NCBI RefSeq assembly: GCF_025526975.1
Contig: NW_026515669.1
Coordinates: forward strand, 2,046,001 to 2,110,000
Direction: 5' to 3'
Source: Fimicolochytrium jonesii
Lineage: Eukaryota
Length of the DNA stretch: 64,000 nt
Below the pieces are notes generated by a model. The model made no database searches, was not told the origin of the DNA, and saw only the letters and a program-made list of their open reading frames with translations. Position 1 is the first letter of the stretch. The number at the start of each line of letters is the position of its first letter. This document shows positions 1 through 37,289 of the stretch, in pieces. The position numbers and the translations under genes are program-made.

Positions 1-3000
1 GGTTCCGAATATGCTGACCCCTTGGCAGCTCGAATGCGTGATCGAAGCTGTGGATGTTGCGAATCGGTCTTCATCAATCACAGTGCCTGCGAGGTGGACG
101 ACTCTCACTACGCCTAAAAACAAGGCTGCTGTGGTCTCGGTCCCCCTCACCAAGTTGAGCCAGACTCCTGCGAATAGCTCGGATTTCGGCTTTCTTGAGG
201 AAATCACCATGACCGCCGGAGGAGATATGACATTCGCCGCCGCTTTTTTTGGGTTTCCACAACTGCAAAGCTCGGGGACGCAGTTGGCGACCGTTCAGTA
301 CTCGGTAGGCAATGCGATGTCGAACACTACGGGCATATTTGACAACATCATACCTTTGACCGCACTCGACCTCTCCGGAGCTACCAATCAATCCATGTTG
401 ATTGAAGGTACTTACGTGCCAGTCCACATGTTTGCAGTTCCCATTACATATCTGGACGCAACGCCTGGTAAGCATTTTATACGGCCAGGGCGCGTATGTG
501 GTAGGGCATCAACTCACCCTCTCTTTGCTGTACAGTGTCGGTGTGCGTCAACGTCACAGTGCAGGCAACTTCGGAGTCGGTTTTCACATGCAGTGCCGGA
601 GTCGCAGCAGATTCAAACCCTCCTGCTGTTGGCACCACGGAGATTTCCCTGGGTGCGCAATACGCAACGACCTCCTCCTCGCTTGTGATAACTTGGGATG
701 GCTTCACATCCCCAAGTTGGCTGCATCCCAACGGATCGGGGATTGCCTTCTATCAATGGACATTGGGTACATATCCGGGCGGAGACGACATTGTGAGCGC
801 CACTCGATCCTACCCAAGCGCCGGGAGAGCGCTGGTAACTGGCATTAAGCTACTGAACGGATATAGCTACTTCGCTACTGTAATAGCGACGGCCGACAAC
901 GGGCTTTCGTCGAACGCAACTTCGGACGAAGTCATCATTGATTACACACCGCCGAGATCTGCATCTGGCATCACCGCGATTCGTCCCATTCAAGTTTCCG
1001 ACAAGGTTTGGAATGTCAGAATTGAGTACGATCACTGGACCGATTTGGAAACCCGCGTTGCAAGCGTCACTTGGGTGATCGAAACACAATATGGATATGG
1101 GGATGTTCTCCCAGCCACGAGGACTGACACGCCGACATCTGCCGAAGCAAAAAATCTGCAGCTCGGCGTCGGTATCACGTACGTCGTCAGAGTCATAGCG
1201 ACCAATACGGCGGGATTGGCGCAGGAGTCTATCCGCTCCTTCACGGTGCCGTATCCCGTCTGGATTCTCTCGCTCGTTGACGGCGCTGCTATAGGTCGAA
1301 GTCTTTACTCGACGAAAGCATACTCCACGGAGAAAAGTATTTACAATCTTTCGTGGAGGTTACTGGGGTCACCTCTCTACGCGGAGTATGCTCTAGGCAC
1401 CAGGCCAATGCAGAACGATATCTATCCTTGGACGAGAGTTACTTCGGAGACTGAAGCTTCAATCATCTTAACGGAACAATTCAATGACGGATTGACATTG
1501 TACGCCTCGATGCGAGCATTTGGAGAAAATGGAATCATCGCCGATGTAATTTCGACGGCTGGTATCACGTTTGACGAAAGCCCGCCTCTGGTGGGTCGAG
1601 TTATCCAAGGTCGTGGGACAGTTCACAAACTGTGGACGATGAGTTCCGCCATTGTGTCCTTCAGCTGGACTGGCTTTTTGGATCGGCACAGTGGTATTGC
1701 CCGGCACCATTATTGCATTGACGCTGACCCGGACCCTAAAAGGTGCGCATCTGAGATGACGGAAATTTATGGCTCCACCGGTGTCTACAGTGCAGGCTTG
1801 GACACTGAGCTTGTTGTGGGCAAGAAGTACTACATCAAGATCCGTGCCACAAACGGTGCCGGCCTGTCTTCCTATGGCATGTCACCACCATTCAAATACG
1901 ATCCATCACCACCGACCCTGGGCCTAGTCACAGTCCATCATCCGTCTTCGGCCGATTTCATCCCGGCTGCTCACGGTGGGGCACTGATCTATCAAGACTG
2001 GTCCACCGTCCAGGTCTCATGGACTGGTTTCTCAGATAGCGATAGCGGAATTGCAAACTATCAAGTCGCTCTCGCTGAACAAGAATCCGGACAACTTGTG
2101 CAACAGTTTGTGTCGGTCGGTGGAAGCACCCTTTGGAGGTTTACGGACGCCGACGGTCTCCTCTTGGAGGATGGCAAAAAGTACTTCGCGGTGGTGCTTG
2201 CCACGAATGGCGCCGGGGCGGTGTCTCAAGCGACATCCGGATCCTTCATTGTCGACACAGAACCACCTTCGGGGGGGAAAGTGGAAGTCGACTTTAACCC
2301 GAATGGGATCTCCACAACAATTGATGGTTTCTTTGACAAGACTAGCGAGATCGTGGAGTATCGAATACTCATTGGGTCTTTCCGTGGCGCAAACGACGTG
2401 GCACCCACTCGGGTCCTTCAAATGGGAAGTGGAAAGGATTGCAACCCATGTGTTGAAACGTTCCCGATATCGTTGCAAGAGAATGCCATGTACTTTGTGA
2501 CGGGTAAGTGCGCGGCCAAACTCGAAGGTCTAGTCTGAAATGGGGATAACGAGGACTAAGCACCTTCAAATTCGTCAGTGTTTGCGGTGGATGCTGGAGG
2601 ACTTTCATCAGCGCCCGTTTCCATCGGCCAGGTCTACACAAAAGATCCAGTCCTGATCAGGGCCGCTGCCGGATTCACCTGGAATATATCGGCGGCCACA
2701 CCGAATGTGTTGAACTTCGGCGCATCGAGTCCGGAAACCGTCACAGTAACCGGATATGGCTTGACGAACTTCGTTGTTTCTGGAGGCGCCGTGCAGCCGA
2801 CCTTCCAATGTCAATTTCTTTATCCGGGCGAAGCGAGTTGGTCCTCAGCATCAGCACAACTAACCTATGAAATATTCCAAGTAACTCAGCTGGATCGCTT
2901 CCACGCCGAAGTGCGTTGCCCGCCACCAAAGAGAGTTGCTTTGAACAATCAAGATGCAGTCCAGTTGCGACTTGTGGCGCCTGACGGGAAAAGCACTTCC

Positions 3001-5480
3001 AACCCGATCCGGCTTGTCCACAAAGGTACTTGATGCCCAGAGTTCTGCATAATGACTCGCTGCGGTGCTGATCATCCTTCTCACAGTCGCTCCTACAACC
3101 TGGGGTTCCACCTCGGCCGTCATCACTATGGGCCTCAGCAATAATATGGCTTCAGCATACCGGATATCGAGGGCCTTGTTTCAGATGACCTGGCCCAATC
3201 GTTTTCCGGCAAAAAGCGTTGCGTACTACTCAATATCCTCCTTCGGTTCGCAATTGGCGATCGTGCCCGGCGATTCATTCGAGTGGATCTTTACCATTCC
3301 CCGAACTCTCTCGAACTTTGAGCAGTTCAAGGCCATGACATCCGTCAGTTTCGAAGTTTGCCCTTACTTTTACGGACACGGTGCGGAGCCACGACAGAAC
3401 TGTCTTGCCTCCTCGGAAATCGTCTTTGACAACAAGCCAGTGAAGCTGAATCCCGCCGTCCAAAGTCAGGTTCCCACCGGAGTTCGCATCCTCGGTTATG
3501 GTTCTGCCAAAGGATTCTTGTACGAAGCGGTCCAATTCCAGCCGACGGATAAGAATTTGGCAGCTGAATGGAAAGATTCCTTCGAGTACGCAGGGAGTAA
3601 GAAAATCGACCATTATGACATGATGATCGGGAATGCACCGTTTGAAAGTGCGGTTGATGTTGTTCGCGGCTTGACGAGCACATCCTTCAACACGTCGACG
3701 GCGCTCGAAGTTGGTGTCGCGTACTTTGTCACAATAACTGCATGGGATGAAGCGGGAATTCCGTCGCTTCTATCGTCGGCGCCCATAACCGTTGACGCCA
3801 CAGCTCCAACTGGGTAGGTTGTGATTGAGAAGTTACTTTTTGGCCGAGGACAAAACTTTCATACTCTACAGGGGCATTGTGTATGATGGAAACGTGACAT
3901 CAGTCTTGGAGAACGGATATCAGTCAGACCCATCGTCAGTGACGGCGTTCTGGCGGGGTTTCGTCGAGAATGAGAGCGTCATTGCCGAGTTCCGCGCATG
4001 CGTGTGGGATGGGTCCAGGTGCATATACGGACCGGTTTCGACTGGAATAGCTACCAGCTTGATGGCCGGCAATCTCTCCCTTTCGCCGAACTCTACCTAC
4101 TCTGTCCGTGTGGAGGCGTGCAACGGAGCCGGTCTTTGGAGCGACCCTGCATTCTCAAACGGTTTTAGGGTGGATATCACGCCACCCGTGCTGAAAGGGA
4201 TGATTTTTGGGACAGGAGGTTCTATTGCGAAAGCGTCTGTGACAGAAGAAAAGCTCAGCTGGACGTTCGTGGATACGGAATCGCCGGTTGTGGAATATAT
4301 GGTGCAGCTCGGTAGTTCCCCGGAAGGAGCTCAGATCCTTCCGCTGACCTCGGTGGGACGACAATCTTTCCTGCCCTTGAACGGACTTGAATTCGCTCAC
4401 AACTCCACGGTCTACGCGATGGTTATTGCCAGAAATGCCGCAGACCTCAGAGGGGTCGGAACGTTTGGGCCCGTACTCATCGACCTCACACCTCCTGTGT
4501 TGCAATCTCCCGTCACGGCAATGGACGGCAATGACGTTGTCAATGTTGTGGACAGCGTGCAAATTAACGCGCGGTGGTCCTTCGTGGATTGGGAAACAGA
4601 TATCGTCGAATACAAGGTCGCCCTTGGGAGTCCATCTGACAGAGAAAGCTACCGAAACTTCGCGTCTGTTGGAATGAACAGCATGATACGCAATGTGACG
4701 GTGGAGGTTGTAGAGGGAGCGCAGATGGTTGTGTCTGTCATCGCGGTCAATGCAGCTGGCTTGGAAGCCAATGCTACATCCCAAACTGTTCGATTTACAA
4801 AAGCACCTCCCAGCAACTGCTCCATCATTCTGCTGGACGAGCAGTTGCGGGCTCTGACGGACGCCGCAATTTACAAAGGCATCACCTACTTGTCACCTCA
4901 AACAGACATCAAGGCACAACTGTCTTGCTCGGCAGCCACGCTCGCTGACATTGCAGACATTTCCTTCCGCCTCGCGAAAGATGGTGGTCAGATGTTCGAC
5001 TGGGTTCCGATTGGCCCCCACGATATCTTGACGATTGAGAGCGGCGGATTACCGAAACTGGACACAATGACTCTGGAAGTTCGGGCGAACAACGCCGCCG
5101 GTTTATGGAGCGACTTCCGCTCCGCTCCGTTCAGGATATCCAGTCAACAACCGGTTCCTGGCGCCGTCACCCTCGAGTGGAGGAACGGCACCGACGCAGC
5201 GAGCGCCAAGAATCTTGTGGTTGCGATCTCAGCTTTCAAAGATGCTAATGCCCCGACATACCCCGTCAATCATACGTTGGGAGTTTTTTCAAGCGATAGT
5301 GTGGGCGCTTACAATATCTACAGCTTGGAAGCCTTGAAGCCCGATTCGACGGGTAGCCTTGCCCCGGTGGTCATTCCGGTGACTTCCAGTGCGAAAGGAA
5401 GGAACTTCACAGCAGTTGTGAGGGGTGTTGGCTTGCTAGGACTTGAGACCAGAGTGATTACTATGCTTCCGGGCGCTTGA
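1..5480 (+). CDS. 3' part of a giant multi-exon extracellular protein with tandem FN3/Ig-like repeats (5' end outside the window)
   Basis: ORFs 11-688, 535-2538, 2578-3033, 3065-3817 and 3825-5480 join through GT-AG introns at about 468-535, 2504-2578, 3026-3086 and 3814-3871. Recurrent motifs DxTPP..G.V, W.GF.D..SGI..Y and Y...V.A.N.AGL are typical of FN3-like repeats. Confidence 0.85.
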
Positions 5481-6749
5481 TCGCTGGTGCACACACCAAT
5501 GCTTCATGTTACGAATATTTCGATTTTAGATGACATTTTGCGAACAAAAATAATATTTAATTAGGTGACTCGGAATTTTGTAGACAGCGGAAGGACAGCG
5601 TATACGGAAATTGGTGTGAGCATGACGATTACATCGAACGTTTGGGATGAGTTTTCGACTTTGCAACGGTGAATGCTGGTTATTCCGCGCAGCCAAACTC
5701 GAAGGCCAGCCGCGTAAAGTTGATGCACCCTGTAACAGGCGCCATCTAAAAACTAAAGGGGGGGATCATGGTGAACTAAGGAGAACTACCACCACGGCCC
5801 ATTCACAACCAGAGGGGATAGGGATTGGGTTCCCAAGGCTGACGGTTCATATCTGGTCTGAACCCGTCATATCGCGCATATGTGTAGAGGAGGTAACGAA
5901 AGTTGGCGCCTCCTTGGATGTCTCTGTTCACCATGATGGGCTCTCGCGCGCGCCTTTGGAGCCCTGGGCCGCCTCGGGCACTTTCTCTTTCATTGTCTCA
6001 ACCCGTTTGCAACCCAGTGCACGGATACGTCTCAGTGCGTCCCACGCTCCCTGAACCTCTTTCGGAATCTCTTCCTCGGGCTCGGTTGCTGTATCCGAGT
6101 CTGATCCGCTCTCTGATGTCAGAGCCCTTTCCAGTCGCTTTCGTTTCTCCTTGACTGGCGTTAGTTCGAGCTTCACCACTACGTTGTCCGGACACTGATT
6201 GATGCGAATGTCAATGTGCGACGTCGATTGCGACGGAATCGGCTGCTCTATTAGCATCGTGTTGTTTGGAGGTTGAATCCGGGTTCGCACTTTTGCTGAG
6301 CGGCGGCAGAAACTGGTATGCCTTTTATCTGCCTTATTTAAATTACAGGCGCCCGTTCACGTGACCATGGTGCGACGTCGTTTCGAGAAGGATTTGCTCA
6401 GGTGAGAAACTACCGCAGAGGAGGATTCAAACCGTTGGTGAACGAAGACGCCGGTGAAACGTCCGTCACGGACTTTGTTCCTTTGCAAGAAAAAAGGGCA
6501 GAGTAGATGGTAATATGATTTTAGACGTATATGCTAGCCTATGTTATGCTATCCGTATATACTATCATTGTGCATCACTTCCTTGACATCCATCTCCCTC
6601 AACTTCTTCTCTGTGCGGTGCTTCACACGCACGGTGTTGCAAAGTTCGACAGCGCGTGTACATTATAGCACCCGGTGCCCCGGTCGGCCGAATCGTACAC
6701 AGTACATAGTAGGTACAATGAACCAATGTACTGTACTGTACATCCTTCG

Positions 6750-6973
6750 GTTTAGTGGGTTTTGCCAACTTTGCCCACTCGATCGCCGTGCCCACTATTC
6801 TGCACCCAAAGCTTCTACTGCGCGTGTTCTTCCCAGCCCGCGTGTTTCACCCCAGCGCGCATTGCCAGAATCTTGACCCACCATTTTAACCCAAATTTGG
6901 CAAGCGAAAGTTCAACAGAGGAAAGCGGGTTGAGGGACTTTGGGTTCAAAACCCACTAAACTGCACCCTTACC
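6750..6973. mobile_element. Probable Mutator-like MITE (~220 bp)
   Basis: Perfect 15-bp inverted repeat GTTTAGTGGGTTTTG (6750-6764) / CAAAACCCACTAAAC (6947-6961). A 9-bp direct repeat CATCCTTCG flanks it (6741-6749 and 6974-6982). The left TIR appears to lack about 12 terminal bp present at the right end. Confidence 0.6.
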
Positions 6974-7320
6974 CATCCTTCGTCAGTCAAGTCTTTCTGA
7001 CTTTCCTACTTCGTGTGGTGGAAATGGCGTGAGAACGGAGAAAGCGTGTACTGGTGGTCCGGGTGGAAATAAATGGTGGGTGAGAAAATGATTCCCCCTT
7101 TCATGGGATTGCCGAGAGAGATGGAGAGAGAGATGGGTTTGTGGTAGATGTGCAATGGTGGGTTTGATACTCGGCAAAATCCAACGCCAGGCCTCCGTTA
7201 GGGAACGCTCCCGGGCAGCATCAACTACAAGTTGCCTTCATTGGCGACGCCTCAGGCAGAGGTACAATGATGTGGATGGCAGATAACCACCACGGAAAAT
7301 GGGATGGGGTGAAATCTAGA

Positions 7321-10282
7321 CTACCGGTTACGGGAGAATGCGTCTGGTCTGCGGCCATTGCCAAACACCACCGAACGCACAATCGAGAGGAAATTCTTGG
7401 TGCTCAGGACGTCCCGATTGTGCACTTTCATCCGTAGTCGTAGTGGTCGTCTTCCAGGAATCTCAAATGGTGTCCAGTCTTGGTTGATACATTCGGGGTT
7501 GGGGCAACCCACCAATCCATGGACGTATTCCATTCTTCCCTTTCTAGCTTGCCATGGCCGAGATGACAGCCGCTGTCGGATGTTTTTCTTCACACGGCCG
7601 TGGCAGTCAGGGCACACGGACGACGTTCGATACTCATCTAGCAAGTAGCATGGAATGCTGTTTCTTGCAAAGAGTGTGCGGAATCTGATTTCCATGATGA
7701 GTTAGCATATTATAATACATAGTAGGTACCACCAATCATGGTTACTCACCCCTTGGTCTTCGATGACTCCTGAAAGCGCATCATTTTCCCAGCATCGCTC
7801 CAATCACCCAAGATGACCGAAAAATTCTTTCCATACCGGCGTCGCATGTTCTTAATGAGCTTGCTCTCAGACTTTTGCCGCAGTGAGAAGGCCTTGAACC
7901 TGCGAGCGATGTGAATCTCATCCTGGTAAAACTCATCCAGGGCGGGATCTGGGATATGGATGGATGTCAGCCCAGGTAATACTAAATTTGAAGACAGCGC
8001 ATAATACATCATACCTGCATGTATGTGATCCACAATGAACGCTGAGAACGCCTCGATGTTCATGCTCTTGTGCGATGGAATATGTGATTCCATCTCGGCG
8101 ATGCCGGCATTGATCTTTCGCTCTCTCATGTCTCTTTGAAAGTACCGAGACTTTGTCTCGACCGCCCGTTGATTGGATGTGTATCTGATACGGGGTGGTG
8201 CATTGTGGGAACGCTGCAGCGGAATGTCGCCGCAATGGGAATGGTGGGGATAGGGGCGGTGGGAGCGGCAGCGGAGACGGGGGGCTGGCGGGCGGAGACG
8301 GGGGGTTGGGGGGCGGAGACGGGGGGCTGGCGGGCGGAGACAGGGGGCTGGGGGGCGGAGACGGGGGGCTGGGGGGCGGAGACGGGGGGGGGGGGGGGGG
8401 GGGTAGCGCAGAAGGGGGGGGGGGGGGGTAGCGGAGACGGGGGGGGGGGGGGGGGGGTAGCGCAGAAGGGGGGGGGGGGGGTAGCGGGGACAGCAGGGCA
8501 GCAGTAATCGACTGAATCGTACCAAAATGGCCGCTCCTTCTTGATGTCTCGACAGAACAAGAGGTCACGCTTGCCCGGATCAATGCTGACGATGTTTGGA
8601 GCCTCCCGTAGTTAGGCGATGTGGTGCTCAAAATACAGCTGCTTGACTTCTTCCTGCATTTGGGCTTTGCTGCGCTTCCGGGCGCGATGGCCGTACTTGA
8701 GCCCTGGCTTCTTGAAGTGGATGGTAGCGGAATACCCGTTTGTGCTGATTGACCCATCAAATTTGAGACCAAGCTTCTTTCGATGCTTGAAGACCTTGTC
8801 CTACAATCCGTCATTCAGCAAGGTAATCAGATTGAAATAACCGCAGAAGGATACAGACTTACATTGATATTGAGAAACTGCCCCCACAGCTCCCGCTTGC
8901 GTTGATCGGTGAGTTTCCCCATGCGATGGTGGCCCAAGGCCAGGATATGAGTGGTTAGGATCTTCGTGTCGATCCGAACAGATGACTGGATTCGAGATTT
9001 GCGCAGCGGGATAGCGGAAAACAGCCGCATTCCACGGCGCTCATAGAGGCGTGAGAGCTCACAATAGGCACCTGTGATGAGGCAGGTGCGGACTACGATT
9101 AGACAAAAGAGGAAGCAGCGCGGGGGGGGCATAATTATACAGGATGTAACTCACCTAAATATGGCATTGCGTCCACCGCAAGGCTGTACGCAAGCGCTTC
9201 ATCCAGGGGAGGAAGCAGAGCCCATAACTCGTCGAGGACGGTCCGCTCAAGTCGTGTGAGGCGCGCAAACTCTTCTTCGGTTGGAAACTCTTCAAACGTC
9301 GCATACTTTTTGAACTGACGGACACGCTGGTAATAGCGTCGCCGCTGCGCTCGGTTGACTCCAGCTCTACGGAGATGCAGTACGACTTGCTTCAAACCAA
9401 GCCTTTCATTGACGTAGCGCAGAAACATTTGCATGAAATGCTCTTGTACGTTAACTTTGAGGTTTGTGAAGATGCTCGTAGCCGTGTACGCTGCGGTCTG
9501 TTGGCAATACCGCATGCGGATGGGGGCGAATCCGTGAACATCACAGCAGTCTTGAACCCATGGATGCAACTCTTGCGCGATGACCGGATTGGCGTTGTAG
9601 CCTGGATTGTTGAGCAGCTCAAATATCACACTGATGTGCTTGTCGGTGATGTCCGGGAAATCGTGTAGAGGATGTGGTGGGGGGGAGACGTAGCAGTCAG
9701 GACATTGGTTTATGCGAAATATACAGTGTAACTCAAAAACTCACCAAGGTAGTACTTGAGAAAAAAGCTGGTGTGGGGCGCCAGGATGTGAACATCGGCG
9801 ATGAAGGTTGTTAGGCGCTCCCTTTGCACTTGATTGTGATTTTGGATTCGGTAAAGGGAAACCTTCGTGCTGGCATGCGTCTGCGGGCAGGGTCGTTGAA
9901 CTGGTGGTGGTGGGGGGGGTTCAAGCACCAGGGATCCGCCCGGTGTGCTGGGAAAAGGGAAAGGGATGGGAGCGGGGAGGTTCAACGGACGCTGCAGACC
10001 CCTGTCCGCGGGTGAGAGCCCTCGCTGCTGTTGCTGTTGCCCGTCTTCATCGCCAGAACTCTCGCTAACCATGTCTGCGATTGCTTGGGGCAAGTGGCGT
10101 TGGACAGACGGTGGGAATTCGAATCGCGGGGGTGGTTGCAATGGTGTCTGCACAGCGGTTGGCAGACGTATGGGCAACCGCGGGGTAACCGGAGCAACCT
10201 TCCTCCTCTTCCGCCGTGGTGTGGTAGCTTCGGTAAAGATGCCACACCACAGGTGCCCCTGGAGCGCCTGGTGTGATGGCAT
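7321..10282 (-). pseudogene. Fanzor1: Fanzor1 (eukaryotic TnpB-like RuvC nuclease), multi-intron, disrupted
   Basis: Spliced translation gives FSAIPLR..RIDT, FDGSISTNG, RuvC-I IVSIDPGKRDLLFC (~8555-8595), RYTSNQR, VILGDWS, RuvC-II LLDEYRTSSVCPDC, Zn-finger CPNPEC and RuvC-III HNRDVLSTKN. Frame-preserving introns lie at 9154-9072, 8862-8801, 8014-7949 and 7749-7685; a first intron starts at 9744 with an unclear acceptor. There is an in-frame TAA at 8614-8612 and a G-rich insert at ~8220-8500. Confidence 0.9.
8245..8490. repeat. G-rich 21-bp minisatellite (GCGGAGACGGGGGGCTGGNGG)n plus long poly-G runs inside the Fanzor gene
   Basis: About five 21-bp units at 8271-8385, then GTAGCG-punctuated poly-G tracts. 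The reverse complement resembles 12780-12922. Confidence 0.9.
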
Positions 10283-10825
10283 GATGGCCGTGCTGTGCTT
10301 TAAGTCAGCCGAGACGGGTGGTGATTGCCGTGATAGCTGTGCGTCAAGGAACTCACGTCAGTGCTGTGGTAATGAGGCTGAGAACGGTGAGGAATTGCGG
10401 TTGTTACCTGGTGGCGGTTGAAGGTGAAACCGGGGATGCTTACTGCTCACAATTGCGTTGGGAAGGAAGGGGGTTGGGAAGGAAGGTTGGTGGGAAGGAA
10501 GGGTGGTATGTAATTGGGAGTGAGGATCCCCACGTTTTTTACACGCGTGTAAAGGTAGCTTCCTGGTGTGTGTACATGTACAGGTGTTGCAGGTGATTGC
10601 GGGACTTTTTTTTTGAGAAGGAAGCGCCTTTGGCAGTGCAGAGAATGCAAGCTACTCGACGCACCTTCCCAAAGACCTTGTTGTGGAACTCGTTACTTTA
10701 TTTCCCTTCACACATACCACTCGTTTTATAGACATTTGATCGGACGGTCTGCCCAAACACACAACCAGCTCTGTATCTGCAGAGAAGAAAAGGGGGGGTA
10801 CGGTAGCTATAAAAAGGAAGCTGTG

Positions 10826-10945
10826 GCTGAAACTGGTTGTTTACAACACTCCCTCTCAGACTGCAAATCGAATTCAATCCGCAGTTGCCGTCGCAGTCGC
10901 TCTGCATGATCCCATGGAACGTTCCGCTCTCAACTTCCGCAATCG
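10826..10945 (+). repeat. Degenerate repeat, inverted partner of 13566-13664
   Basis: Shared blocks GCTGAAAC.GGTTGTTTA, CTGCA.ATCGAATTCA, GTCGCTCTGCAT and CATGGAACGTTCCGCTCTCAACT. Both copies open an ATG reading MERSALN.R.R. Confidence 0.85.
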
Positions 10946-11206
10946 CTTGAGTCCAGATCGGAGTAGGAGCCGGGCTCGCGATTGGTACGCCATCAACTTT
11001 ACGCTGTCAACTTCCGCCATCGCTGATCTCGACGCTTCCAGTGCTGAGCACGACCGCCGCTTGCGGGAGGTCGACCGGCATGGGATGCGTTGTCGCTTCG
11101 TCGTCATGGTTGTGGATGCCTCGGTAAAAACCTCTCCCAGTTGTAAAAACCTCCGTGAGGAAAAAAAAAATAGATCCTGGGAGTAGGAAAAGAGCGCATC
11201 GTCGTA

Positions 11207-11600
11207 TCAGGAAACATCGGCTGTTGGGCGCAATCCTAGAGCGTGAACAAACTTCCAGTGTTTGTTTTCATCGAGTGACTTGGTAAATATATCCGCAATG
11301 TTGTCATGTGTATTGATCTGAGTGACGCTGATCGTTTTCGCATTTTCCTGACGGATGTAGGCATAAACCTTGGGCTCGATGTGCTTGGTTCTGTCGCCTT
11401 TAATGAAACCGTGGGCAATTTGGAAGATGCATGCGGAGTTATCTTCAAATATCGTTGTTCGTTCATGGCAGGTGTCGCCTCTTTTTGTCGTAGATTCCAC
11501 ATGGTTGATCATCATCCGTAACCAAATGGCTTCCCGGGTTGCTTCATGTAAAGCGATGAGTTCAGCGTGGTTTGAGGATGTTGCAATGACGGGTTGTTTC
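11207..11600 (-). mobile_element. Ty1/copia LTR-retrotransposon RNase H fragment
   Basis: KQPVIATSSNHAELIALHEATREAIWLR, TTIFEDNSACI, RTKHI and NIADIFTKSL match the copia RT-RNase H C-terminus. No LTR or PPT was recognised. Confidence 0.9.
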
Positions 11601-11960
11601 GTGGGCGCGATGACAACAGCAGCGGTCTTCGAGTCATTCTTGCGAGACGATGTCATCCCTAGAATCGACGAAGCCAACCAAGTTCTTATTATGGACAATG
11701 CACCTATCCACCGTCGATGTGTTATCAAGGATATTATGCCAGATGCGGGCCATACGCTGAAAATGCTCCCCTCTTATACCCCATTTTTCAACTGCGCAGA
11801 GTGGGCAAGCCCTTCATTTGTTGTCACGAAATTTGAGCTACTCAGGACAACCTTCCCCATCTTATTCATGAAGGGCTGGATTGCATTTCAGCGCAGACGG
11901 TGGAAGGGTGGATGAGAGAAGTCATGAGGAATTTTACCATTGCTCTTAGAGGAGAACGAC
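11600..11960 (+). mobile_element. Tc1/IS630-family DDE transposase C-terminal fragment (frameshifted)
   Basis: GAMTTAAVFESFL..VLIMDNAPIH..LKMLPSYTPFFNCAEW matches the second-D (DNAxxH) and LPxYSPxxNPIE regions of DDE_3 transposases. The N-terminal part is replaced by the copia fragment. Confidence 0.85.
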
Positions 11961-12409
11961 TCGGGCGTATGTATGACTGTCAATCCTACTTAGACCTTGC
12001 ACAGTTCCAAGGTCAGGAGCCTGCGGCGGATGATGATGATGGTGATGACGATGATGGGAGCCAGAATGGGAACGAGGTCGGCGAGAACGACAATGAGGAG
12101 TAGCTAGTTCCATAGAAAAGCGACGATCTTGTATAGCTGTGTGTACGCTACTTGGTGAATAAGCGAATATGATTTGCTACAGCTGTGTGGAGGCTCTTTA
12201 CGTTGCAAATCTGCGCTGTTGTGCGAATGTTAAACACTGACAACGATTTCGGTGTGCAGCCAGGATATGTAAATTTAGACGTCATTATTATATGCCTACA
12301 CTGTCAAAATACTGTCAAACGTACCTACTTTTGCGGTCCCTGTCTCTGAGACCTCTTTCTCGCTCTCTCTTCTTCCAACCTCAGCACACTCCGAGATCCA
12401 CACCCCGAC

Positions 12410-12482
12410 ACAGCAACAACAACAACAACAACACAACAACAACGACAACAACACAACAACAACGACAACAACGACAACAACC
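12410..12482 (+). repeat. Imperfect (CAA/CGA)n microsatellite immediately upstream of an ATG
   Basis: caacaacaacaacaacaacacaacaacaacgacaacaac... runs up to the ATG at 12483. Confidence 0.9.
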
Positions 12483-13451
12483 ATGCCCAAAGCACCCCCA
12501 CGCCGAACTCAATCTGGTGCAGGAGCAGGCAGGGGTAGGGACGACCGAAACTACTCCTGCCTTGCTCCTGGAGGAGTCTGCGTTGTTTGCGGGGCTCGGA
12601 CGTCCGCTGCGTGGCGAACGGGCATTGTGAACAACGTCAAGACAGCCAGGGCGGCCTGCAATAAGTGTGGGCGCGCGCAGGCATATCTGGATGCCATCGC
12701 TGCCCTCCCGGGCAAACCCGTCGTCCCCTCAACCACCCTCCCCGCACCCGCCCCAGCCACCACGCACCTCACCCGCCAGCCCCCCATCTCCGCCCACCAT
12801 CCCCCCGTCTCCACCATCCCAACCCCCGTCTCCACCGCCCAGCCCCCCGTCTCTGCCGCCGCTCCCCCCGTCTCCGCCCCCCAGCCTCCCGTCGCCGCTG
12901 CCGCTCCCACCGCCCCTATCCCTAACCCCCTTGCAATCACCAGCCTCCTCAACCCCGCCCCAATCTCTGCCCTTCTCAAACCTGCCCCCATCCCCACCCG
13001 CCCCACCCGCGCTGCCGCCATAGCAGGGGTCGCAGCTGCAGCAGCAGCAGCAGCAGCGCCCACCCCGACGACCGGTGACGAGGAGGAGGGGTATGACGAG
13101 ATGGCGCAGGAGGAGCTGGCCGCGCTTGAAGAGGAGGAGGGGCACTGGAGGGCGTTGGGAAAGCTAGTGAGGGAGACGTGCGGTTCAACAACACGCCAGG
13201 CGATGAAGGCCCACACCACGCCCCTCTTTGACGCACACCGAGCGCGCCCGGCCGCTGCAAAGGAGAAGGCCGAGGAAGTGCGGGCTTTTACCCCCGCCTC
13301 CGACGACGCCGATGATGATGACGAGGAGTATACGTCGGTGGAGAGCAGCCTCCCACACTCCGAGTCCGTGTCGTCATACGGATCTACATCTGGTGGCGAC
13401 GAGACAGCGGGCTCCGAGTTGTGGGAGGAGGAGGATCATGCATTTGCGTGA
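12483..13451 (+). CDS. GATA-like Zn-finger protein with Pro/Ala heptad repeats and acidic tail
   Basis: CVVCGARTSAAWRTG..ACNKCG is a CxxC..T..WR.G..CNxCG GATA-type finger with a longer spacer. It is followed by PPVSAxx repeats and a D/E/S-rich C-terminus. Confidence 0.7.
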   Translation: MPKAPPRRTQSGAGAGRGRDDRNYSCLAPGGVCVVCGARTSAAWRTGIVNNVKTARAACNKCGRAQAYLDAIAALPGKPVVPSTTLPAPAPATTHLTRQPPISAHHPPVSTIPTPVSTAQPPVSAAAPPVSAPQPPVAAAAPTAPIPNPLAITSLLNPAPISALLKPAPIPTRPTRAAAIAGVAAAAAAAAAPTPTTGDEEEGYDEMAQEELAALEEEEGHWRALGKLVRETCGSTTRQAMKAHTTPLFDAHRARPAAAKEKAEEVRAFTPASDDADDDDEEYTSVESSLPHSESVSSYGSTSGGDETAGSELWEEEDHAFA

Positions 13452-13565
13452 GGGTGAGTTCATCATTGTCTCCGAGACAACTGTCTCCGCCATCTCCACT
13501 GCTCCTGACACACGCTCTCTCATAGAGCAAATCACGAGGCTGCCCCTATTCCGGGCTGTCTCCAT

Positions 13566-13664
13566 CGATCGCGGGAGTTGAGAGCGGAACGTTCCATGAG
13601 ATCAGAATGCAGAGCGACGGCGACTGAATTCGATCTGCAGTGTTTATAAACAACCCGTTTCAGC
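13566..13664 (-). repeat. Inverted partner of 10826-10945
   Basis: The reverse complement reads GCTGAAACGGGTTGTTTATAAACACTGCAGATCGAATTCAGTCGCCGTCGCTCTGCATTCTGATCTCATGGAACGTTCCGCTCTCAACTCCCGCGATCG. Confidence 0.85.
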
Positions 13665-14182
13665 AGGAATAAAACGCAAAGGACCGTGAGGCAGAGGAAA
13701 AATGGTCGTGGCTCGAGCTGTTTGAGAGTGGGTAAGGTTGCTTTCTGTTGCGATACATAGTACGTACGGTAGTTGTGCTGTTCAGTTAACACCCACGAAG
13801 CGCCGAGCGCGACAGTAGTTACCACGCCGCGCCTAGCGCGACAGGGGTCATAATCTGAACAAAGAAGTTGTCTGGGAATGGGAATTGAACTCGCTACCTG
13901 CACGTCTGCAGGGAGAGCAAGATTCAATTGTGCCAAAGCGCCAGTGTTATCAGAGTGCAATTACAGTAGGTGGCCAAAAGAGCGTCCGAGAGAGCGTTCC
14001 ATCACGTGGGTTTCATCAAGTGAGCGTTGCGCAGGCTTTAATAAGTCTGATCCATATTCATCAGTCTGTCTGACATTTCCGCCTTCTGGCGCGTCCTCAA
14101 CTACGTGTATTGTCCATCTCATTAAAAAGAAACCTCCGCATTCACCCAAGTGTCGTGGCCAACGCCAGATTTTGACCCGGCT

Positions 14183-17100
14183 TCAAGTTTCGCGAAAATG
14201 GCTGGGAGATGACCGTTCCGTCCGGCTTGATGCTCCACAGGAGGACATATTTCTGCAGATTGCCTGACGGACCACAGGTAGCTGTTGGGCTCGTACACTG
14301 CAAGAGCTGTTGCATAATAGGGCCGCGGTTAGGATTATTCCGTGTTGCACCAGCCTGCTCCTGGCCGCACTCACCATGTCCGTATAGCCATCTCCATCCA
14401 TGTCTCCGGGAAGATATGCTGCCCATGTCTGTCCACGACGATCTTGCAGCGTGGTTCGGAGCACCACCTCGGTTGCCGTCATCTGATGTGCCGTCCCTTT
14501 GACCGTGACAGCGAGGTTTTGAATGGCAAAGGCGAATCCGTCGTATGTTCGTTGCCAGGAAAGGAAACCGATTCTGGTTCCCCATGCGCCCAGGCCAACT
14601 GGCGTTCCACTGGCAGATACATACACAGTCTCGGTGCAAGGCTAGAAGAGGGTGGAATTGCGTCAGAACTAGGGTAAAAGCAATCAGCGCGTCCGATTGC
14701 TTTCTTACCAATGTGAAATTGCTGCCAAAGCAGAAGGACACCACATTCATGATCCTCGAAACCCAAACACTAAAAATTGCATTGAATTCAGCGGTTGGAG
14801 AGAAACCATATGGGGAAAATCCTCCAAGAAGACCACGTCTCTGTCGACTGTCGTACCTTGCGAGCCTATCATTTAGATCAAGATCTGCAAATCCCAGCAA
14901 TCGCGGACCCAAAGGAGGTGAATAGAACGCCTGTTCCGCTTTCAAAGTGCCGTTCGGCTTCAACAGCCACGCCCGGTAGAGGTTCGTAGCGCTGTTGTAG
15001 ATTATGGCGTCCGTAACCAGATCGGCATCCAGATCGCTGTAATGGTTGGTTACAAAGAATAGATGGCAACGTGAGCAAATGGGAGGGAAGTAAGCGCGCC
15101 CACGGCCCTTCAGATTCCAGGAGCAGCGACTCTTACCAAAGTGAGACGATCGTCATGGTGCTGGTAAGTGTCGGTGACTGGAATGTCGCATTCATAAGAT
15201 AGGAGGTCGAAGGCCAGTACCCGTAGGTCGTTGGCACGAAGGAGACAGGTGCACGTTTCTGTCTTTTTACTGTTGTTTCAGCGGGATCATCGATCGTTGA
15301 TACTTCTTCCGCTTCTTCCTCTTTACGACGCAATCTATGAGACGGGCTGTCCTGGGTATATAAGATGTCGGGAAGTCCATCCAGGTTCAGATCGACAAAA
15401 GTAGGCACGGTTTCATTGACGTAAAGCGCGTACATCCCCCCGAAAGTGGCCTAGGAATTCGTGTAGCCTAAGTTAGTCGGTCACGCACACACTCGTGAAG
15501 TCGTACCCGCCACACCTACCGTGAAATTGAGGGAACGTTGCGCGCTGTTGGCGATAGACTTCACTCCGACCCATTGACCGCCGGTGACCCTGACGCCATA
15601 AACCGCGAACGACTTTACATCCGTGGCATTATCGTTGCTCGTAAAAGTACCGTTAACCACAACAAAGGATCCACTGTTGATGTTACCGTCTTTTGTGACG
15701 CTAAGGATCGCAGCCTCGGCCCGCTTGTACCGACCGTACTTTCCTCCGGCTCGCAAAACGAGTAAAGGTGGTGGCAAAGGAAGTCCGCCAAAGCTGTCTG
15801 GCACGTAGCCGACATTTGCGGTCAATGGCACGACGAGGATCGCATGTTCGCTTGTCGCCGGCAACAACGTTGCCACACTTAATCCGATGGTCTCATCTTG
15901 AAACCCCTTGATCATCGCCGAGTTGTTCTCGCGAGGAGCCAGCAACATGGAATCCGTGCCCAAATAATACGCCGCCCGAGTAGACACCTCGCTCGAAAGA
16001 CTCCCCAAGTTCGTTGCTCGAACACGGTAGAAGAGCGGCGAAAGGATGGTGCGCTTATTCGTTGGGAGGAGGTAAGAGGCATTCGGGCCAAAAATGATGG
16101 CGCTTTCCACTCGATCACTGAACGAAATAGCAGTCCAAGGAAGAACATCAGGGGCGCCTGAGTTCCCCGAGCTGACAGAAACCTCGTAATATGCAATCGA
16201 AGTAGCGGACTCGATAAAACCGGTCCAAGCAATCTGGCGCCCATGCATCTGGAGCCTCACAGATGCCGACGCGTTATCGGGGGGGTGCGTCTGCACCGTG
16301 GCACATGTGACCGTGCTGTTCATATTCAGCGCTCCGTCTGTCGCGTTCAGGCTGACGCACACCCTCCCTCCTTCGGCCGGTAGTGGGGCGGTAGTCGTAA
16401 AATTTGCCCCTGTTGCGTTGGTTCGGGTCCACGCATACAAGTCGTTAGAGAACGGGGTTGTCCCTAGGGCAAAGTCGTAAAATAAAATTCCAGAAACGCT
16501 GTCTCCAGCTGCCCAAGCTAGACTGATGTTTTGGCTTGAGATCACAGTGACGTTATCGCCGTTGCGCATAAAGTCCAGTGACTGCAACTGCGGTGGCTCA
16601 GTGTCTATGGTCATTTGGTCTGACCATTTGATTGCTTCGAGACCCGCTCTGTTGATGGCCTTCAGACCAACGTAATATTTTGCGGGGTTGATGTCAGGGT
16701 CGGGTGTGATGGATCCGGCTGGTGCGCCAGAGATGTTGAAACGGGCAGGGTCATAGAAGCATCTATCGTTCATCTTCACATATCCTTTCGTATCGTCGCA
16801 AATGCAAGAGTAACCGCCAAAAGTATTAACGCATGTGGCCAATGGCTCGCAGGTATCGGTTCCCTAAGTGTTCGGCAATCACTCCATTAGCCTTCGCCTC
16901 TAGGAAAGCTTGCTTCATTTGGTCATGTCCTTACCTCTAAACATTCGTCATAGTCGACACACGATTGAGTTGCTGCATTGTATGCAAAGCCAGTATCGCA
17001 CTGAATCCTATACGACGGCGTCGTTGTGTTGCCAGATATGCACCTTCCGTATAACGGGGTTGGCACGGCCGAGCACCAATCCACTTCGTTGCAAGAGGCT

Positions 17101-20100
17101 TTCCTTTGGGTGGCAATGTCAACAAAACACCAGGGAAGACGTCCAGCAATGTCGCTTACGCAGTCCGTTTGAAGAGTAGCGTTGTACAAGAATGGTAGAA
17201 CACAGGTCTGGTTCGTTGTTGTCCGTCGGGGTGCCACTAGGCTAACCGTGTCTGTCGGCTTGTTAAGGCTCCCATCTGCCTTACAAGTTTCGGAGATTCC
17301 ACACCACATCGGAGGCAGCGCGACTTGAAATAACGGGAAGTCGATGCTCATCGTGTACAACGTGTCCCCGCGGACGGCGGGGTTCGGGTACGAGCAACTG
17401 GAAGTCGATCTCGCCATACTTCCAGGCGGAATGTTTGGCATGCACACACATACGGATGACGTGGAGGAAGAGCCATACTTGACAGCCGATTGGTAGCTGA
17501 AGAACGGAAGATTGAAATTCGAGCATTTTGTAGCGCAGGCGGCTAGGCTCAGATCGTAGGTCAATAAGGAACCCTCCATCGCTCCGCGTAATTCTATTCC
17601 ACTATTGATCCACGGCCGCGGTGTGTTGAGGCAGCCCTTGAACTCCGGAGTTACAGGACTCACAGGTAGGCCTGGGGCGGGACCGGGGATCCCTGACTTC
17701 CATGTTTGATTGTTTGAAGTCGCTTCGATGCAGCGCCTTCCGGATCGAGTTGTTCGCGGAAGCATTTGATACTGGCGAGCATTTCCAGCATTGGAACTGC
17801 GAGCGGAGAGTGAAATTGTATAGTTCACAGGAGCCTCATCAAGAACCAGGATGTACACTGGTTGCCCACGAGCTGCATCGAGCTGAAGCGTGCATTGTCC
17901 AACGGAAGGAGAGCAGACCGAAACGGCCATGGCATCGAAGAAGCAATCGCCGAATGCTGCCATGAAAAAGTCCCATTTTCTTTGCGGCGTCCGCTGGGTC
18001 CGGGCAACTAACTGGTCCCCCGTTCCCACCAACTTGTACCAGTTGCCAAAAGTTGAGACGGGCGTTCGCTTATCGGACCGCTTGAAAAAGCCGCTGATCG
18101 ATCCGGTGGTGTTGGTTCCGATGTATAGTGGGGCCGCCCCTGCGCAGCTCAGTTCCGGATCAGGTGAAGAACATCCCTGTAGACCTACTCCAGACCCCAC
18201 TTTCCCAGACGGGCACAAGCATTGGTAACCCCCGAGTGTATTAACGCAGGTAGCTAGCTTATTGCACTTGTGCTGACCGGTTGCGCACTCGTCAATATCC
18301 ACGCACGTCCACTGGTCAATCCGTCGGAAACCTTCGTAGCACTGGCAGGTGTATGACCCCGAGAGATTTTGGCAGCAACCTGAATTTCCACAAATCGTAG
18401 TTTGGTTGGCGGCGGATATTGCGCATTCATCTACGTCGGAACATCCATCCGATGAAGAATAAGGGTTGGTCCCCGCAAATCCAGCATCACAGGAGCACAT
18501 GTAAGAGCTATCATTCGGTGCAGGGAGGATAGCATTAGCTCAAAGATCATGAATTGCTATGTGACGCCAATTCGACAGGTCATTATTTACCCTGGTAAAT
18601 TAGTGCAATGCGCGTTCTTGCCACAAAGAGACACGTTCTGGGCAAGTGCGACGGCGCATTCATCGACATCTCGGCAGCCACTGAAACCAACTCCATCTCC
18701 CTCGTAGCCTGGAGGGCATGCGCAAGTGAATGGGAGAGCCGGCTGCACAGAAATTGACGCGACATTGTTGGCGTTTGTGCCATTTGCAGTGACTGCGACA
18801 GTGCCGTTTGCTGAAACATTCGTTTGAGCACCGACCCCTCCGAGGGGCACAGCTGCAAGCTGCGCACAGGAGGCAAGTGGCGAGCATCCTCCCATCGTAG
18901 CATTGAGCTTACACCAGTTGATGGTGGTGACCGTCGTAGGCAAGACACTCGACACCATTCCAAGTCGAACAAGCTCGCTAGGCCGCAAGTTCACGGGTCC
19001 AGCCGAAAAGGCGGATATGTTGGGCTGAATGCTTTTCGCATCGACCTGGGTGAAAGACAAGACATCCGTTTGCCCTGGCTGGGTGCCGATCGCGATCTCG
19101 TATTGATGTATACCGGACTCAAGATCATTCCACGGTTCACCGTAATTACAACCATGCGTTGTGTTTAATGGGTAAGTCATCTCACTAACGCTCATAGTCG
19201 CGTTTGTGGTGAGAACACCGCCCAGGCTCCAGAGACGGAACCGCGGAGCAACTTTGGGAAGCGCCGGGAAAGCAATGGGGCCTGCTGCCAGCCCGCTTGT
19301 CGTGACTGATCCTACCGCATTGCCCGAATCATCCGTAACCACAATTCGTGATGCATCCTGACCGATTGCGACTGTGTAACGAAGGTAGGTCGAAGTGGCG
19401 TTCTGAGTTAAAGAAACCTGTTTGCCTCTCCAGATTTTATCCCCTTGTTGAGTTGTCCAAACAACGAGGACGCCAGGGGCATCGGCATAAACGTCAAAGC
19501 CAAGTGCGGAATAAGCAGGGGCCTCGGAAAGCGTTTGGTAGGTCGTGTTCCAGTAATCTCTTTCGAGAACAGTTTGATCCGTGTTCGCCAATATGATGGT
19601 ACTGACGGTTCGAGAAGCATTCGAGGCCTTCATTCGGAAAGAAAATGACGAACCGGAGGCGTAAATGCTCGACAAAACTTCGCAGCCCGAGAATGTCTCG
19701 GAATCGTTGTTAGAAGAGCTTCCTCGTAGAGATAGGCCGTTGGAGTTCGACGCGGCGCACTGGTCTCGGAAGTTCACTCGAGCTGTTGTGAGGTTGAAAT
19801 CCCCCGGACCCCTTGTATACCGCATCCAGGCGGGAAGACTGCCATTGCGAAAATCCTGAAAGCGCCTTGGGCAGTTCATACCAATCTCGTCCTGCGCCTC
19901 GAGCCAAGTGATCTGCGACTCGTTTGAGAAGGCGCTATACTTTTGATTCACCGTGACGTCCGATCCCAAATTGACTGTTCCGGCGACTGGGTGGCTCGGG
20001 TCGAAGCGCAACGGGGCACTCAGCGTATAAGCTTTCACCCCAGCCCCGTTGATCGCACCGATGAGAACGCGATACGTCCCACTCGGTGTCAATGTTGTTG

Positions 20101-23100
20101 CAACGCTGATATTCGCGGCGCCTGCTGTCTGGTCAAAATTTCCGATAGATTGAAATGGTTGAATTACCGTTTCCGGGTTGAACTGCATTAAATTCAACAG
20201 GTTATCAACCAACACCGTGCTCGGATTCGATCCAATACCCGCCGTATCCCTGCGGGCGATTAAGTCCGGAAGAGACGCGTTTACGACCGCGTATTCCAAG
20301 GCAAATATTCCGGTACTTGCGGAGACATTTGAAACGAGAAACTCCAAACTCGTGGCTTCCGAGGTCCACATCAATTCTGAATTGGCCAAAACCGCAGAAG
20401 CGCTATAGCTGGGGAACGATACATGCCCAGGTTTTGGAGGCACTACATCGACGATGAAGGAACAACTGCCAATGACACTTTGGAAAGATGCATCGACCGC
20501 TTTGACGAAAGCGTAGTACTGAGTGGTGACGTTCAGACTGAGGTTGGCGAAAGTGTACGTGGTCGTGATTGTGCTAACATTCCGGAACTGCGTTGGGTTC
20601 TCAGGATTGGCGGAACTACTAAGAGCGACGTAGTATTGGAGCGGGCTCCACGTTGAGTGAAAGCTCTCCCAGTTTATGGTGACGGTAGTCGTTGAGCTCT
20701 GGGCCGTTGCGTTCTTCGTTTCGAGGCCGTTGTCAAGCCATACGTAGCCTTTCGAAGGCGGTGGTCGCTCGCCGATCGAAAAGCCATTCGATACAGCGGA
20801 AACAACGTTCCCTTGACATGTGACCGCTTGCACAGTCGTATAGATGCTCACGTACGAAGGAAGCGAGGTGGACAGCTCAAACGACACTGATGTGTTCAGT
20901 CCTACATTCGTGAGAAGGAAAACGTCACCCGAAGCGTCTCTATAGTTGGTTCCAAACGAGACCGAGTAGGAGCGGATAGCGCAGGTTGGGGTTGACATGT
21001 CATCCCATGAAGCGGACAAACTGGTAGAAACCCGCGTTTCATCAATATCGACTCGGAAGAACGGTCCGTCGTACACTCGTCCGGGATAAGGGGGTTGAAA
21101 GATGATTGTTATCCCATTGCTTTCCGTTTCCGGCCCGGGGATATGGAGACTGTCGTATGCCTGTACTCTGACAATGTATGTCCGATTTGCAGCCAGTCTG
21201 AGATTCGATGCCGTTACTCTAGTCTGGGTTGTGAACGCCTCCGGCTGCGCAGGTTCTCCAGTCAAGGAGTCGAAGATCGACCACCGATATAGCACGATGG
21301 CACAGATGTGCTGCGACTGCCATTCAACGGAAATAGTTCTTGAATCAAGGGAAAAGGTCTCCCCATCGTCCGTATTGCTCAACGATTGCCCGACCCAGAG
21401 GACTTTGGGCCCCTGATTGGCAACACCCACTGGTTTTGATTCGACCATTGACGTCAAACCTGCCACATTAGTTCCCTGCAGAATAACAGACAGCTGCATG
21501 CCGTGCACAGCACGCTTGTTCAGGTTGAATACCCCCGATGTAGCATTTCCCTTTTCCACCCAATCCAGAAGGACTTCACCTGGTGACAATGAGTCATCCA
21601 AGCGTCGACCTTTGATGGCGATTCGATAAGATTTCATTCCACTCTCGGGGTCATTGAATACTCCATCCCAACGCACTTGGACACGCGAAGTTTCACGTAG
21701 GCAGTCCGTCGATTCTTCCAGTTCGGCGATGAAAAATCCTTCTGTGTCTTTTTGGAGACCTCTACCCAGCGGTTTCACCACATACAGATTTTCGGGTGAT
21801 ACCAGAGGCTCAGTAAAGTCCACATTCACGGAAGTGATAACGGGGGTTTGCAAGCCGACGGAGTTTGTGCCCCAAAGTGTCACGAAGTAGCGAGCGGTCT
21901 GCCTGTCCATGCTGTACTTGGAGGAGTCAAAGACAAAGTACGTCCCAGTCACGTTGATACGATTTGTGATTTCCGACCCGCCGGGAGACGTGCCAAGTGC
22001 AATCTCAACATGGTCAATCCCGCTCTCCGCATCGACGAAGGATCCCCAATCGCAAAAGATGGGGCTGCCGGGCGAAACGATCGCTGGACTGCATATAAGA
22101 TCTGCAGGAGGAATCGGTGGGGTGCTATCGATAGCGAGAGGTCCAGTAAATTCGCTCGAGACGAAGCCCGTGTTCCTTTCGACGGCAACGCATCTACAAA
22201 AGATTCCGGCGCCAGGGGCAAACTCGCCGAGATCCAGGACGGAGCTCAATGTAGCACTTGTTTGCTCGGCGGTTGTAGTAAGAGACTGGTTTGGCGAGGT
22301 GGAAACTTGTTCCGCATGGTTCCGGGCAGTACCACATACTATCGAGAGCTGGCCGATTGCACTTCCGAGGCTATCCGCCGTCGTCGAGCAGGAGACTGGC
22401 ACGATGGAAGAAGTCTGGTTCGTGATGTATTTCGACACCGTCGCGATGTTGACAATAGGCTTCGGCAGTGCCTGATCAATCACCTATAAATCGCAAGTTT
22501 AGATTGATTGCGGAGTTCGCCATAGCCGCCCCACTCCCTCTTCCAACTCACCCTGAACGCATTGGACGTAACGGATATAATGTCCGTCCCTAACACTCCG
22601 CCGAATGTGGCGCGCACCGTGAGATAATAATATTGCCCCGAAGATAGCGAGATGGCGGAGTACAAGATTTGTCCACTTTTCTCTTTGGAAGGGATGAGGA
22701 GACATTCGGTCGTGTAGTCCACGAGATCAGTCCCGCCGGGGATCGTTCCCAAAGACCATTCGTAGAAAGCCCCGGGTAGTGAGTGAGTGAAATTCTGGGA
22801 GAACGTGTTAGCGAAGTCGCGGGGCGTAGGGAATGCTTAGGTGGAACTTTAGGTACACTTACGTTAAAAGTTGCGCTCAGTACATCATTTTCAGCTTGGA
22901 AATCTACACTCCTTTTCGGATCTGGACCGATGAAAACTACACCGGGACGTGCGCCCGGCTTGACCGTCGTTCCTTCGGTGAGGTTTCGGATCCCTGAGAC
23001 GAGTCCAGCAGCGTTGATCGCTCGCACGCTCATGAAATAGACTTGCTCGTCAATCAATGGATGCGGCACAACCACGTAAGGCTGACGAACGGTTGTGAAA

Positions 23101-34976: not shown

Positions 34977-35296
34977 CGAGGGTCTTATGGTTCTATGGAC
35001 GACGTGTTGGCGAGATGGACTCCGTTCAGAGGTTGCTTAGTAAGCTCTCTCTATTTTCTTCTCGAGTGACAGTATAAATAGGGAATTGCTAACGACGCCG
35101 TGTTTGCTATCCACGCTACCCTCCGCGCTTTTGACAGTAGCTTTTGACAGTCTGATTGCGACGCGTCGCATATAAAAGGCGACTGGCGCGCCCCTGGGCC
35201 CTTGGGTATAATGAGGCTCACTTCTGACGTGACCTTCCACCCCAGTTACCTTTCCTGAGCATTTTCGAGTGCAGGAAGTGAGCCACACACACACAC

Positions 35297-37145: not shown

Positions 37146-37289
37146 TTAGGGTTAGGGTTACAGGACTTAGAGTTAGGGTTAGGGTTAGGGTTAGGGTTAG
37201 GGTTAGGGTTACAAGACCCCCTGGGTTGGGTTTAGGGTTAGGGTTAGGGTTAGGGTTAGGGACAGGGTTGGGGCATGCACGTTCCCCTA
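37146..37289 (+). repeat. Interstitial telomeric repeat (TTAGGG)n with short interruptions
   Basis: Several perfect TTAGGG runs interrupted by ACAGGAC and ACAAGACCCCCTGGG, ending GGGACAGGGTTGGGGCATGC. Confidence 0.95.

Follow-up and report, generated by a model that had tools for sequence, protein, structure and literature searches.

The window, the whole 64,000-nucleotide stretch of DNA analysed here from the soil chytrid fungus Fimicolochytrium jonesii, carries a gene of the Fanzor type, a jumping-gene enzyme family that cuts DNA using a guide RNA, on its minus strand between positions 10282 and 7321. With splice sites placed by phase, the gene consists of seven exons and six introns spanning 760 codons; an earlier interpretation made from the letters alone (the sequence-only reading) had put it at six exons or more, so that the multi-exon structure stands and the exact count is seven. 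Exon 1 (9745..10282) opens with the ATG at 10282 and encodes an NLS-like PRRKRRK (10219-10199), a Pro-rich region of about 130 aa and the start of the WED/REC region. In the AlphaFold model of a sibling protein, P0049, this Pro-rich arm is predicted to be disordered (pLDDT <50, residues 1-133). Exon 2 (9155..9679) encodes the REC domain, including the two Gln (QQ, 9509-9489) that contact the target motif, exon 3 (8863..9071) was assigned by splice placement, and exon 4 (8523..8800) holds the KYG loop, a TAA codon and the RuvC-I motif IDPG (8584-8573), ending in TG, the first letters of a split stop. Exons 5 (8015..8184, YTSNQR...IPSHKSM) and 6 (7750..7948, ...GDWSDAG...SSKTKG) both match the SpuFz1 structure 8GKH. 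Exon 7 (7321..7684) contains DEYRTS with the RuvC-II Glu (7638-7621), the Zn-finger cysteines of CPDC (7614-7603) and CPNPEC (7506-7489), NRD with the RuvC-III Asp (7419-7411) and the terminal TAG (7323-7321). The codons of all three RuvC acidic motifs and of the Zn finger are thus present, as had been proposed. GT-AG ends were found in five of the six introns, and lengths were 62-83 nt with the exception of intron 4 (8185..8522), which measures 338 nt and contains a C-rich minisatellite with a 21-nt period. Intron 1 (9680..9744; 65 nt, its 3' end placed by inference) has a GTGAGT donor and a CTGAC branch motif 18 nt before the acceptor implied by siblings, a spacing similar to the 19 and 18 nt of introns 5 and 6.

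Several lesions interrupt this copy. A nonsense TAA lies at 8614-8612 (codon 487), where the 32 siblings covering the site have Glu (24), Lys (3), Asp (3) or Gln (2). A second in-frame stop, at codon 517, is a TGA composed of 8524, 8523 and 8184 and split by intron 4; all 27 sibling models covering this site have Arg. The acceptor of intron 1 reads CC instead of AG, the AGs next downstream break the frame, and the first in-frame AG ends at 9602, its use costing 26 codons. Siblings read YYL-AD-HPL across this junction in all 11 models that span it. Lastly, intron 4 alone of the six lacks a branch-like motif (CT[ACG]A[CT]) within 60 nt of its 3' end. The window encodes AAFPQC at a place where sibling models P0023 and P0054 have AAFSQC, which would fit a sibling branch motif CTCAC that was lost here, a fourth lesion deduced from the protein of sibling models only. 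The window copy thus has at least three lesions, and likely four. The sequence-only reading had regarded the copy as only lightly decayed, with one clear stop, an unclear first acceptor and a G-rich insert; the TAA and the missing acceptor AG are borne out, the insert is not a coding lesion, and the split TGA had been overlooked. The copy is more heavily broken than that reading had it.

Because both stops precede the RuvC-II Glu, and the first also precedes the RuvC-I Asp, the catalytic codons are untranslatable from the window copy, and an uninterrupted spliced ORF through RuvC is absent from it. The copy cannot make RuvC and likely makes no working nuclease. It could be argued that the locus is functional, the stops and missing acceptor being sequencing errors or being bypassed by splicing. 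Long, error-prone G homopolymers lie nearby, and the database model of this locus, P0001 (707 aa, 696/696 aligned residues identical, on a contig equal in length to that of P0076, the window's own neighbouring ORF), is indeed open. That model is open only through use of the later intron-1 acceptor and skipping of 8632-8184, however, so that IDPG is dropped and the product is left without the RuvC-I Asp and without 26 REC residues. Three independent lesions at separate sites also speak against errors, and the RPF-W point of the split stop is also where sibling model P0055 breaks off, so that this change may be real and either shared or recurrent. We consider a functional window copy highly improbable.

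The assignment of the gene to Fanzor1 was supported by sequence, predicted fold, phylogeny and the published motif pattern, as the sequence-only reading had proposed. Three pieces of the window gene were compared with the PDB and each returned SpuFz1 (8GKH) first (E 1.9e-29 for the last exon, 5.4e-28, and 2.3e-22 for exon 2, the latter against the REC region); strong matches of exon pieces were to Fanzor1 structures only. Sibling P0049 matched 8GKH at E 4.6e-149, PpFz1 at 2.4e-37 and GtFz1 at 2.1e-4. Its AlphaFold model (mean pLDDT 71.4) had Fanzor1 structures as all of the seven best Foldseek matches listed (SpuFz1, E 1.1e-47, TMt 0.79), and SpuFz1, PpFz1 and GtFz1 all ranked above every Cas12 and TnpB, in keeping with an overall Fanzor1 fold. 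The Fanzor1 pattern given in bioRxiv 2023.08.09.552727, DPGx(120,280)Ex6[CH]xxC...RDx5N, is present in the window model (X at stops) and in 17 of 55 family models, and the RuvC-II Glu shows the C-terminal shift of Fanzor1, lying six residues before the Zn finger. Identity of the window model was 90.4% to P0049 (685/758), 54% to Gaertneriomyces P0056 and 45.9% to Spizellomyces punctatus P0059. A tree built from 18 proteins placed its six F. jonesii sequences in one clade (100/100), sister to P0056 (100/100) and apart from the S. punctatus group. The spliceosomal introns, the chytrid names of the matching records and the tree with S. punctatus proteins mark this as a eukaryotic gene that groups with known Fanzor1.

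Pfam searches of the window pieces, of P0049 and of P0059, the latter an S. punctatus control, gave no Fanzor or TnpB family at the cut-off; PF07282 was the only match of the last exon (E 0.035, below cut-off), and a precomputed label, PF26935, was absent from the Pfam copy searched. Since P0059, itself a Fanzor, has no Pfam match, failure to match TnpB/Fanzor profiles in this Pfam copy is uninformative as a refutation test. Searches of viral contigs gave one marginal 18-aa match, and none with an alignment as query. The Fanzor1 call holds, and these genes represent a Fanzor1 family related to SpuFz1. No paper on a F. jonesii Fanzor was among those listed by full-text literature searches, and the genus name is absent from eight supplements of PMC10432273 and from two of PMC10530073, the latter pair also being without the word 'Spizellomyces' and hence weak evidence.

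All 13 matches obtained with the last exon among 116 candidate proteins came from F. jonesii, and a second search yielded 26 matches among 7998 scored. The family comprises at least 58 F. jonesii gene models at about 55 loci (accessions within two merged), which is a lower bound on annotated pieces rather than a genome count. Sibling counts were made on 55 of these models, leaving aside 13 non-F. jonesii proteins and the JGI cluster mates P0020, P0033 and P0037; these three were rejected as family members, being short and unrelated in sequence. Intact siblings had been anticipated, and at the level of gene models this is confirmed by P0049 (XP_052925929), which is uninterrupted, 761 aa long and has all catalytic residues. 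It aligns over all 625 core columns and P0050 over 623. The proposed reconstruction of a new orthologue is unnecessary, because this whole member is already in the public annotation and requires no repair. Intactness is judged here from automatic gene models. One further model, P0066, joins what by eye is a tyrosine-recombinase-like N-terminus to a Fanzor piece, and lies beside another Fanzor model.

SpuFz1 residues described in PMC10432273 were mapped onto the family through the 8GKH alignments (fusion offset 394). The equivalents of D383, E541 and D606 are conserved, as are those of Q129, Q130 and Y345. The N385 position is Gly in 30 of 32 models, giving the DPG that bioRxiv 2023.08.09.552727 presents as the usual Fanzor motif at RuvC-I. 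The N133 position is never Asn (18/18 pattern matches), R291 corresponds to His in the window copy and to Arg in P0049, and the REC-loop Arg, R96, is replaced by Gly in 12 of 14 models, the window copy and P0049 included, within a loop five residues shorter than that of SpuFz1. Given the changes at the R96 and N133 contacts, the target motif of the F. jonesii family likely differs from the CATA of SpuFz1, judging from these residues.

The same loop raises a less welcome prospect. The Arg matching R96 is essential in GtFz1 according to PMC11423790, so the activity of whole copies is not guaranteed, and by this analogy even they may be weak or inactive. Extended to the whole family, this would make the genes inactive in cutting or DNA engagement, a decaying cargo of another element. 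Such a reading is consistent with the prevalence of Gly in a shortened loop, with the finding that only two of 55 models (P0049 and P0050) span almost all of the 625-aa core at high identity, and with C-terminal differences of about 5-9% between copies (91-96% identity for 27 of 30), which suggest no very recent burst. It is opposed by the 16 of 55 models in which the three acidic motifs and the Zn motifs are jointly retained, by the conservation of the Q129, Q130 and Y345 equivalents, and by the two models that have Arg at the R96 position, as in siblings of the P0047 type. We regard an inactive family as the less probable outcome, and hold that whole copies likely work as SpuFz1 does, by analogy with that enzyme.

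A candidate omegaRNA scaffold lies just downstream of the window stop (7226..7300, minus strand), its 3' end being guessed from the 75 nt of SpuFz1. TTTTCCG is found at 7299-7293, 21 nt after the stop, followed by a hairpin at 7293-7272 (-10.6 kcal/mol); the SpuFz1 scaffold begins with the same letters 22 nt after its stop, as counted by eye, and stem-loop 1 is the part of Fz1 guide RNAs described as conserved. Aligned by eye without gaps, the two scaffolds agree at 14 of the initial 19 positions, and over the initial 36 positions they agree at 20. With nine occurrences of TTTTCCG in the window against 10.3 expected, the chance of one within 60 nt of the stop is roughly 0.5%. A scaffold of 75 nt starting at 7300 would finish with TA like that of SpuFz1, although this is weak evidence, and a 41-nt hairpin piece gave a folding z of -3.29, having been picked after the hairpin was seen. 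Pattern expressions for the scaffold were written after both sequences had been seen and are not counted as a test. Folding of 7330-7190 was no better than that of shuffles (z 0.23, 109/200), and Rfam gave no match at E<=1 in 6400-11300. A covariance model of four relatives and six pairs, run with no positive control and too small to reject a candidate, returned seven matches at E<=10 that did not include this one. On balance the hairpin is more likely than not a SpuFz1-like stem-loop 1, and a scaffold end at 7226 is doubtful. Among metagenomic SpuFz1-like loci, a TCC-stem-loop resembling omegaRNA stem-loop 1 was seen near the stop at L003:2805-2845, L004:3186-3226, L005:5939-5979 and L009:3322-3362.

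Elements of the Spu-1 type have terminal inverted repeats of 30-33 nt, a CA upstream and a TA duplication, as described in PMC10432273 and PMC3627910. No element ends and no terminal inverted repeats of this type were found at the window copy, nor is its ORF intronless. Comparison of 6500-7330 with 10290-14200 gave no inverted match above shuffles, the best match of a right-end probe (18/30) was equalled in 28 of 200 shuffles, and no clear terminal inverted repeats were found in the loci of five relatives. The left end of the element may have been lost to neighbouring insertions. A 71% inverted repeat (10826-10983 / 13530-13664), the arms of which follow a Copia-like fragment and a GATA-like ORF, respectively, was rejected as a candidate for the ends of the Fanzor element, since each arm is on the upstream side of the gene.

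The G-rich stretch that had been read as an insert is the 21-nt-period minisatellite, located wholly inside intron 4 (8522-8185) and bordered by ∼40 nt of ordinary sequence at either intron end. P0023 and P0054 run into similar low-complexity sequence at the same place, so that the minisatellite has likely long been a feature of the family. Over 152 bp it shares 85.5% identity with the Pro-rich repeat (12772-12922) of a plus-strand GATA-like zinc-finger ORF (12483..13451), a multi-copy ORF that may be linked to the element. The annotation contains five or more copies of this ORF, with 88-95% identity. Besides the one in the window, P0073 (KAI8822222) is numbered beside Fanzor models KAI8822220-21, whose contig has the length of its own, an adjacency in one of four copies for which about 4% is expected by chance and which is suggestive of linkage only. 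Model P0074 continues from a GATA-like ORF into the sequence of the inverted repeat, so that ORF and repeat may be one unit. Together, the shared repeat, the copy number and the P0073 numbering could indicate that Fanzor gene and GATA-like ORF belong to one composite mobile element, DNA of the ORF having been captured into intron 4. On the other side, for the remaining three of the four copies the closest known Fanzor model is 11, 26 and 263 accessions away, about 55 Fanzor loci stand against five copies of the ORF, other transposon remnants separate the two genes in the window, and adjacency is inflated by the clustering of transposons. We consider a composite element unlikely.

Intron-rich Fanzors are known, with intron gain of up to about 9.6 per kb reported in PMC10530073, and the introns alone are therefore not new. 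Those of the F. jonesii gene lie at codons 180, 355, 424, 517, 574 and 640, and were compared with ten of the closer loci in a metagenomic set of 80, retained from 116. L002, L003, L005/L006, L007 and L008 each have a GT-AG intron close to residue 273 of P0049, and L003 and L008 have a further one near residue 698; neither coincides with any of the six F. jonesii positions. In L002, L003 and L005 the match runs through the sites of introns 2-6 with no room for introns, and in L044, a more distant locus, one intron falls two codons away from F. jonesii intron 6. From these alignments, independent intron gain would be the simplest reading, and close relatives, which range from intronless through one or two introns to six, at positions that differ, offer a compact case of intron gain in a transposon gene. 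L003 and L005 additionally appear to have N-terminal arms that are basic and of low complexity.

The gene lies within a nest of transposons flanked by two very large convergent multi-exon genes (505-5480 and 14142-30334) with fibronectin-III-like and EGF-like repeats. A truncated Tc1-type transposase fragment lies ∼1.1 kb upstream of the Fanzor gene, at 11207-12103, where a frameshifted plus-strand Tc1/mariner DDE_3 (PF13358, E 2.8e-10) stands back to back with a minus-strand Copia-like fragment, which has no Pfam match and looks like an RNase H end. Segments upstream of the Fanzor gene recur at 86-88% identity (10320-10369 versus 32360-32404; 10920-10951 versus 32963-32996), the recurrences near 32-33 kb sitting in a repeat-rich non-coding stretch. 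A broken MULE transposase (35282-37273; PF10551, E 4.9e-09) ends at 21 copies of GTTAGG that form an interstitial, telomere-like array (37145-37273). Further on, 38866-63434 is intron-poor and virus-like, with a 1117-aa ORF (47966-51319) that matches D5_N (E 7.9e-10) and, weakly, AEP, with further ORFs of the T5orf172, kelch, lipase 3 and exo/endo/phosphatase types, and at 38866-40419 what by eye is a fragmented tyrosine recombinase, with no Pfam match; this stretch may be an endogenous giant-virus or polinton-like insert. For viral sequence in F. jonesii, PMC12247965 gives a capsid gene only.

Taken together, the locus is very probably a broken seven-exon copy of a multi-copy Fanzor1 family related to SpuFz1, and itself likely makes no working nuclease. 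In an intact copy, six introns would be spliced to give a protein of ∼760 aa with a predicted disordered N-terminal arm and an NLS-like motif, which by comparison with SpuFz1 may serve nuclear import. Such a protein would likely bind an omegaRNA encoded directly downstream of its own stop codon; the last bases of this RNA would derive from flanking host DNA and act as the guide. The protein would then cut DNA bearing the target motif and a match to the guide, again as in SpuFz1. Cutting might help the element to persist or spread through repair of the cut site. The window copy would at most supply guide RNA to intact copies, as proposed for ghost loci in S. punctatus. A fuller scenario, a still-active family that gained six introns after the split from the intronless SpuFz1 lineage, recognizes a new motif without the REC-loop Arg, and moves without terminal inverted repeats in company with a GATA-like zinc-finger gene, part of which was captured into intron 4, appears improbable as a whole.

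No eukaryotic RNA-guided nuclease has been studied better than SpuFz1, which is restricted to the CATA motif. A family ∼45% identical to it, with changed motif contacts, dozens of copies and a whole annotated member, is a cheap orthologue to screen, and the element ends, guide and motif should be readable from the genomic copies. The window copy is a marker for the F. jonesii family only; the whole sibling P0049 is the candidate source of a new editing enzyme, likely with a different DNA motif.

Among known systems, Chlamydomonas reinhardtii Fanzor1c (CrFNuc; PMC10530073) resembles the F. jonesii family, going by its published description, in having spliceosomal introns and several copies per genome, but is Helitron2-associated. 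PpFz1 of Parasitella parasitica (9CF0) and GtFz1 of Guillardia theta (9CER) have the Fanzor1 fold in common with it (Foldseek E 1.9e-28 and 4.0e-17) at 15-20% identity; as presented in PMC11423790, their target motifs differ (ATN and TTAA) and PpFz1 carries an extra FRI domain. The nearest non-sibling in the protein search was P0056 (KAJ3177236, Gaertneriomyces sp. JEL0708; 52-54% identity), the sister group noted above, which unlike F. jonesii keeps DPN and an Arg in the REC loop, has His at the N133 position, and has a gene model without the long N-terminal arm. SpuFz1 (8GKH) is a single ORF of 1917 nt (638 aa) without the ∼130-aa Pro-rich arm, as opposed to the six introns of the F. jonesii gene. 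It has DPN rather than DPG at RuvC-I, and R96, N133 and R291 where F. jonesii has Gly in a shorter loop, Ala and, in the window copy, His; its element, Spu-1, has 30-nt terminal inverted repeats of which none was found at the window copy. According to the accounts in PMC10432273 and PMC3627910, SpuFz1 shares the WED-REC-RuvC-Zn layout and Spu-1 is likewise multi-copy with many copies broken. Identity to the F. jonesii family is about 42-46%, and in both SpuFz1 and the window copy TTTTCCG and a hairpin follow shortly 3' of the stop.
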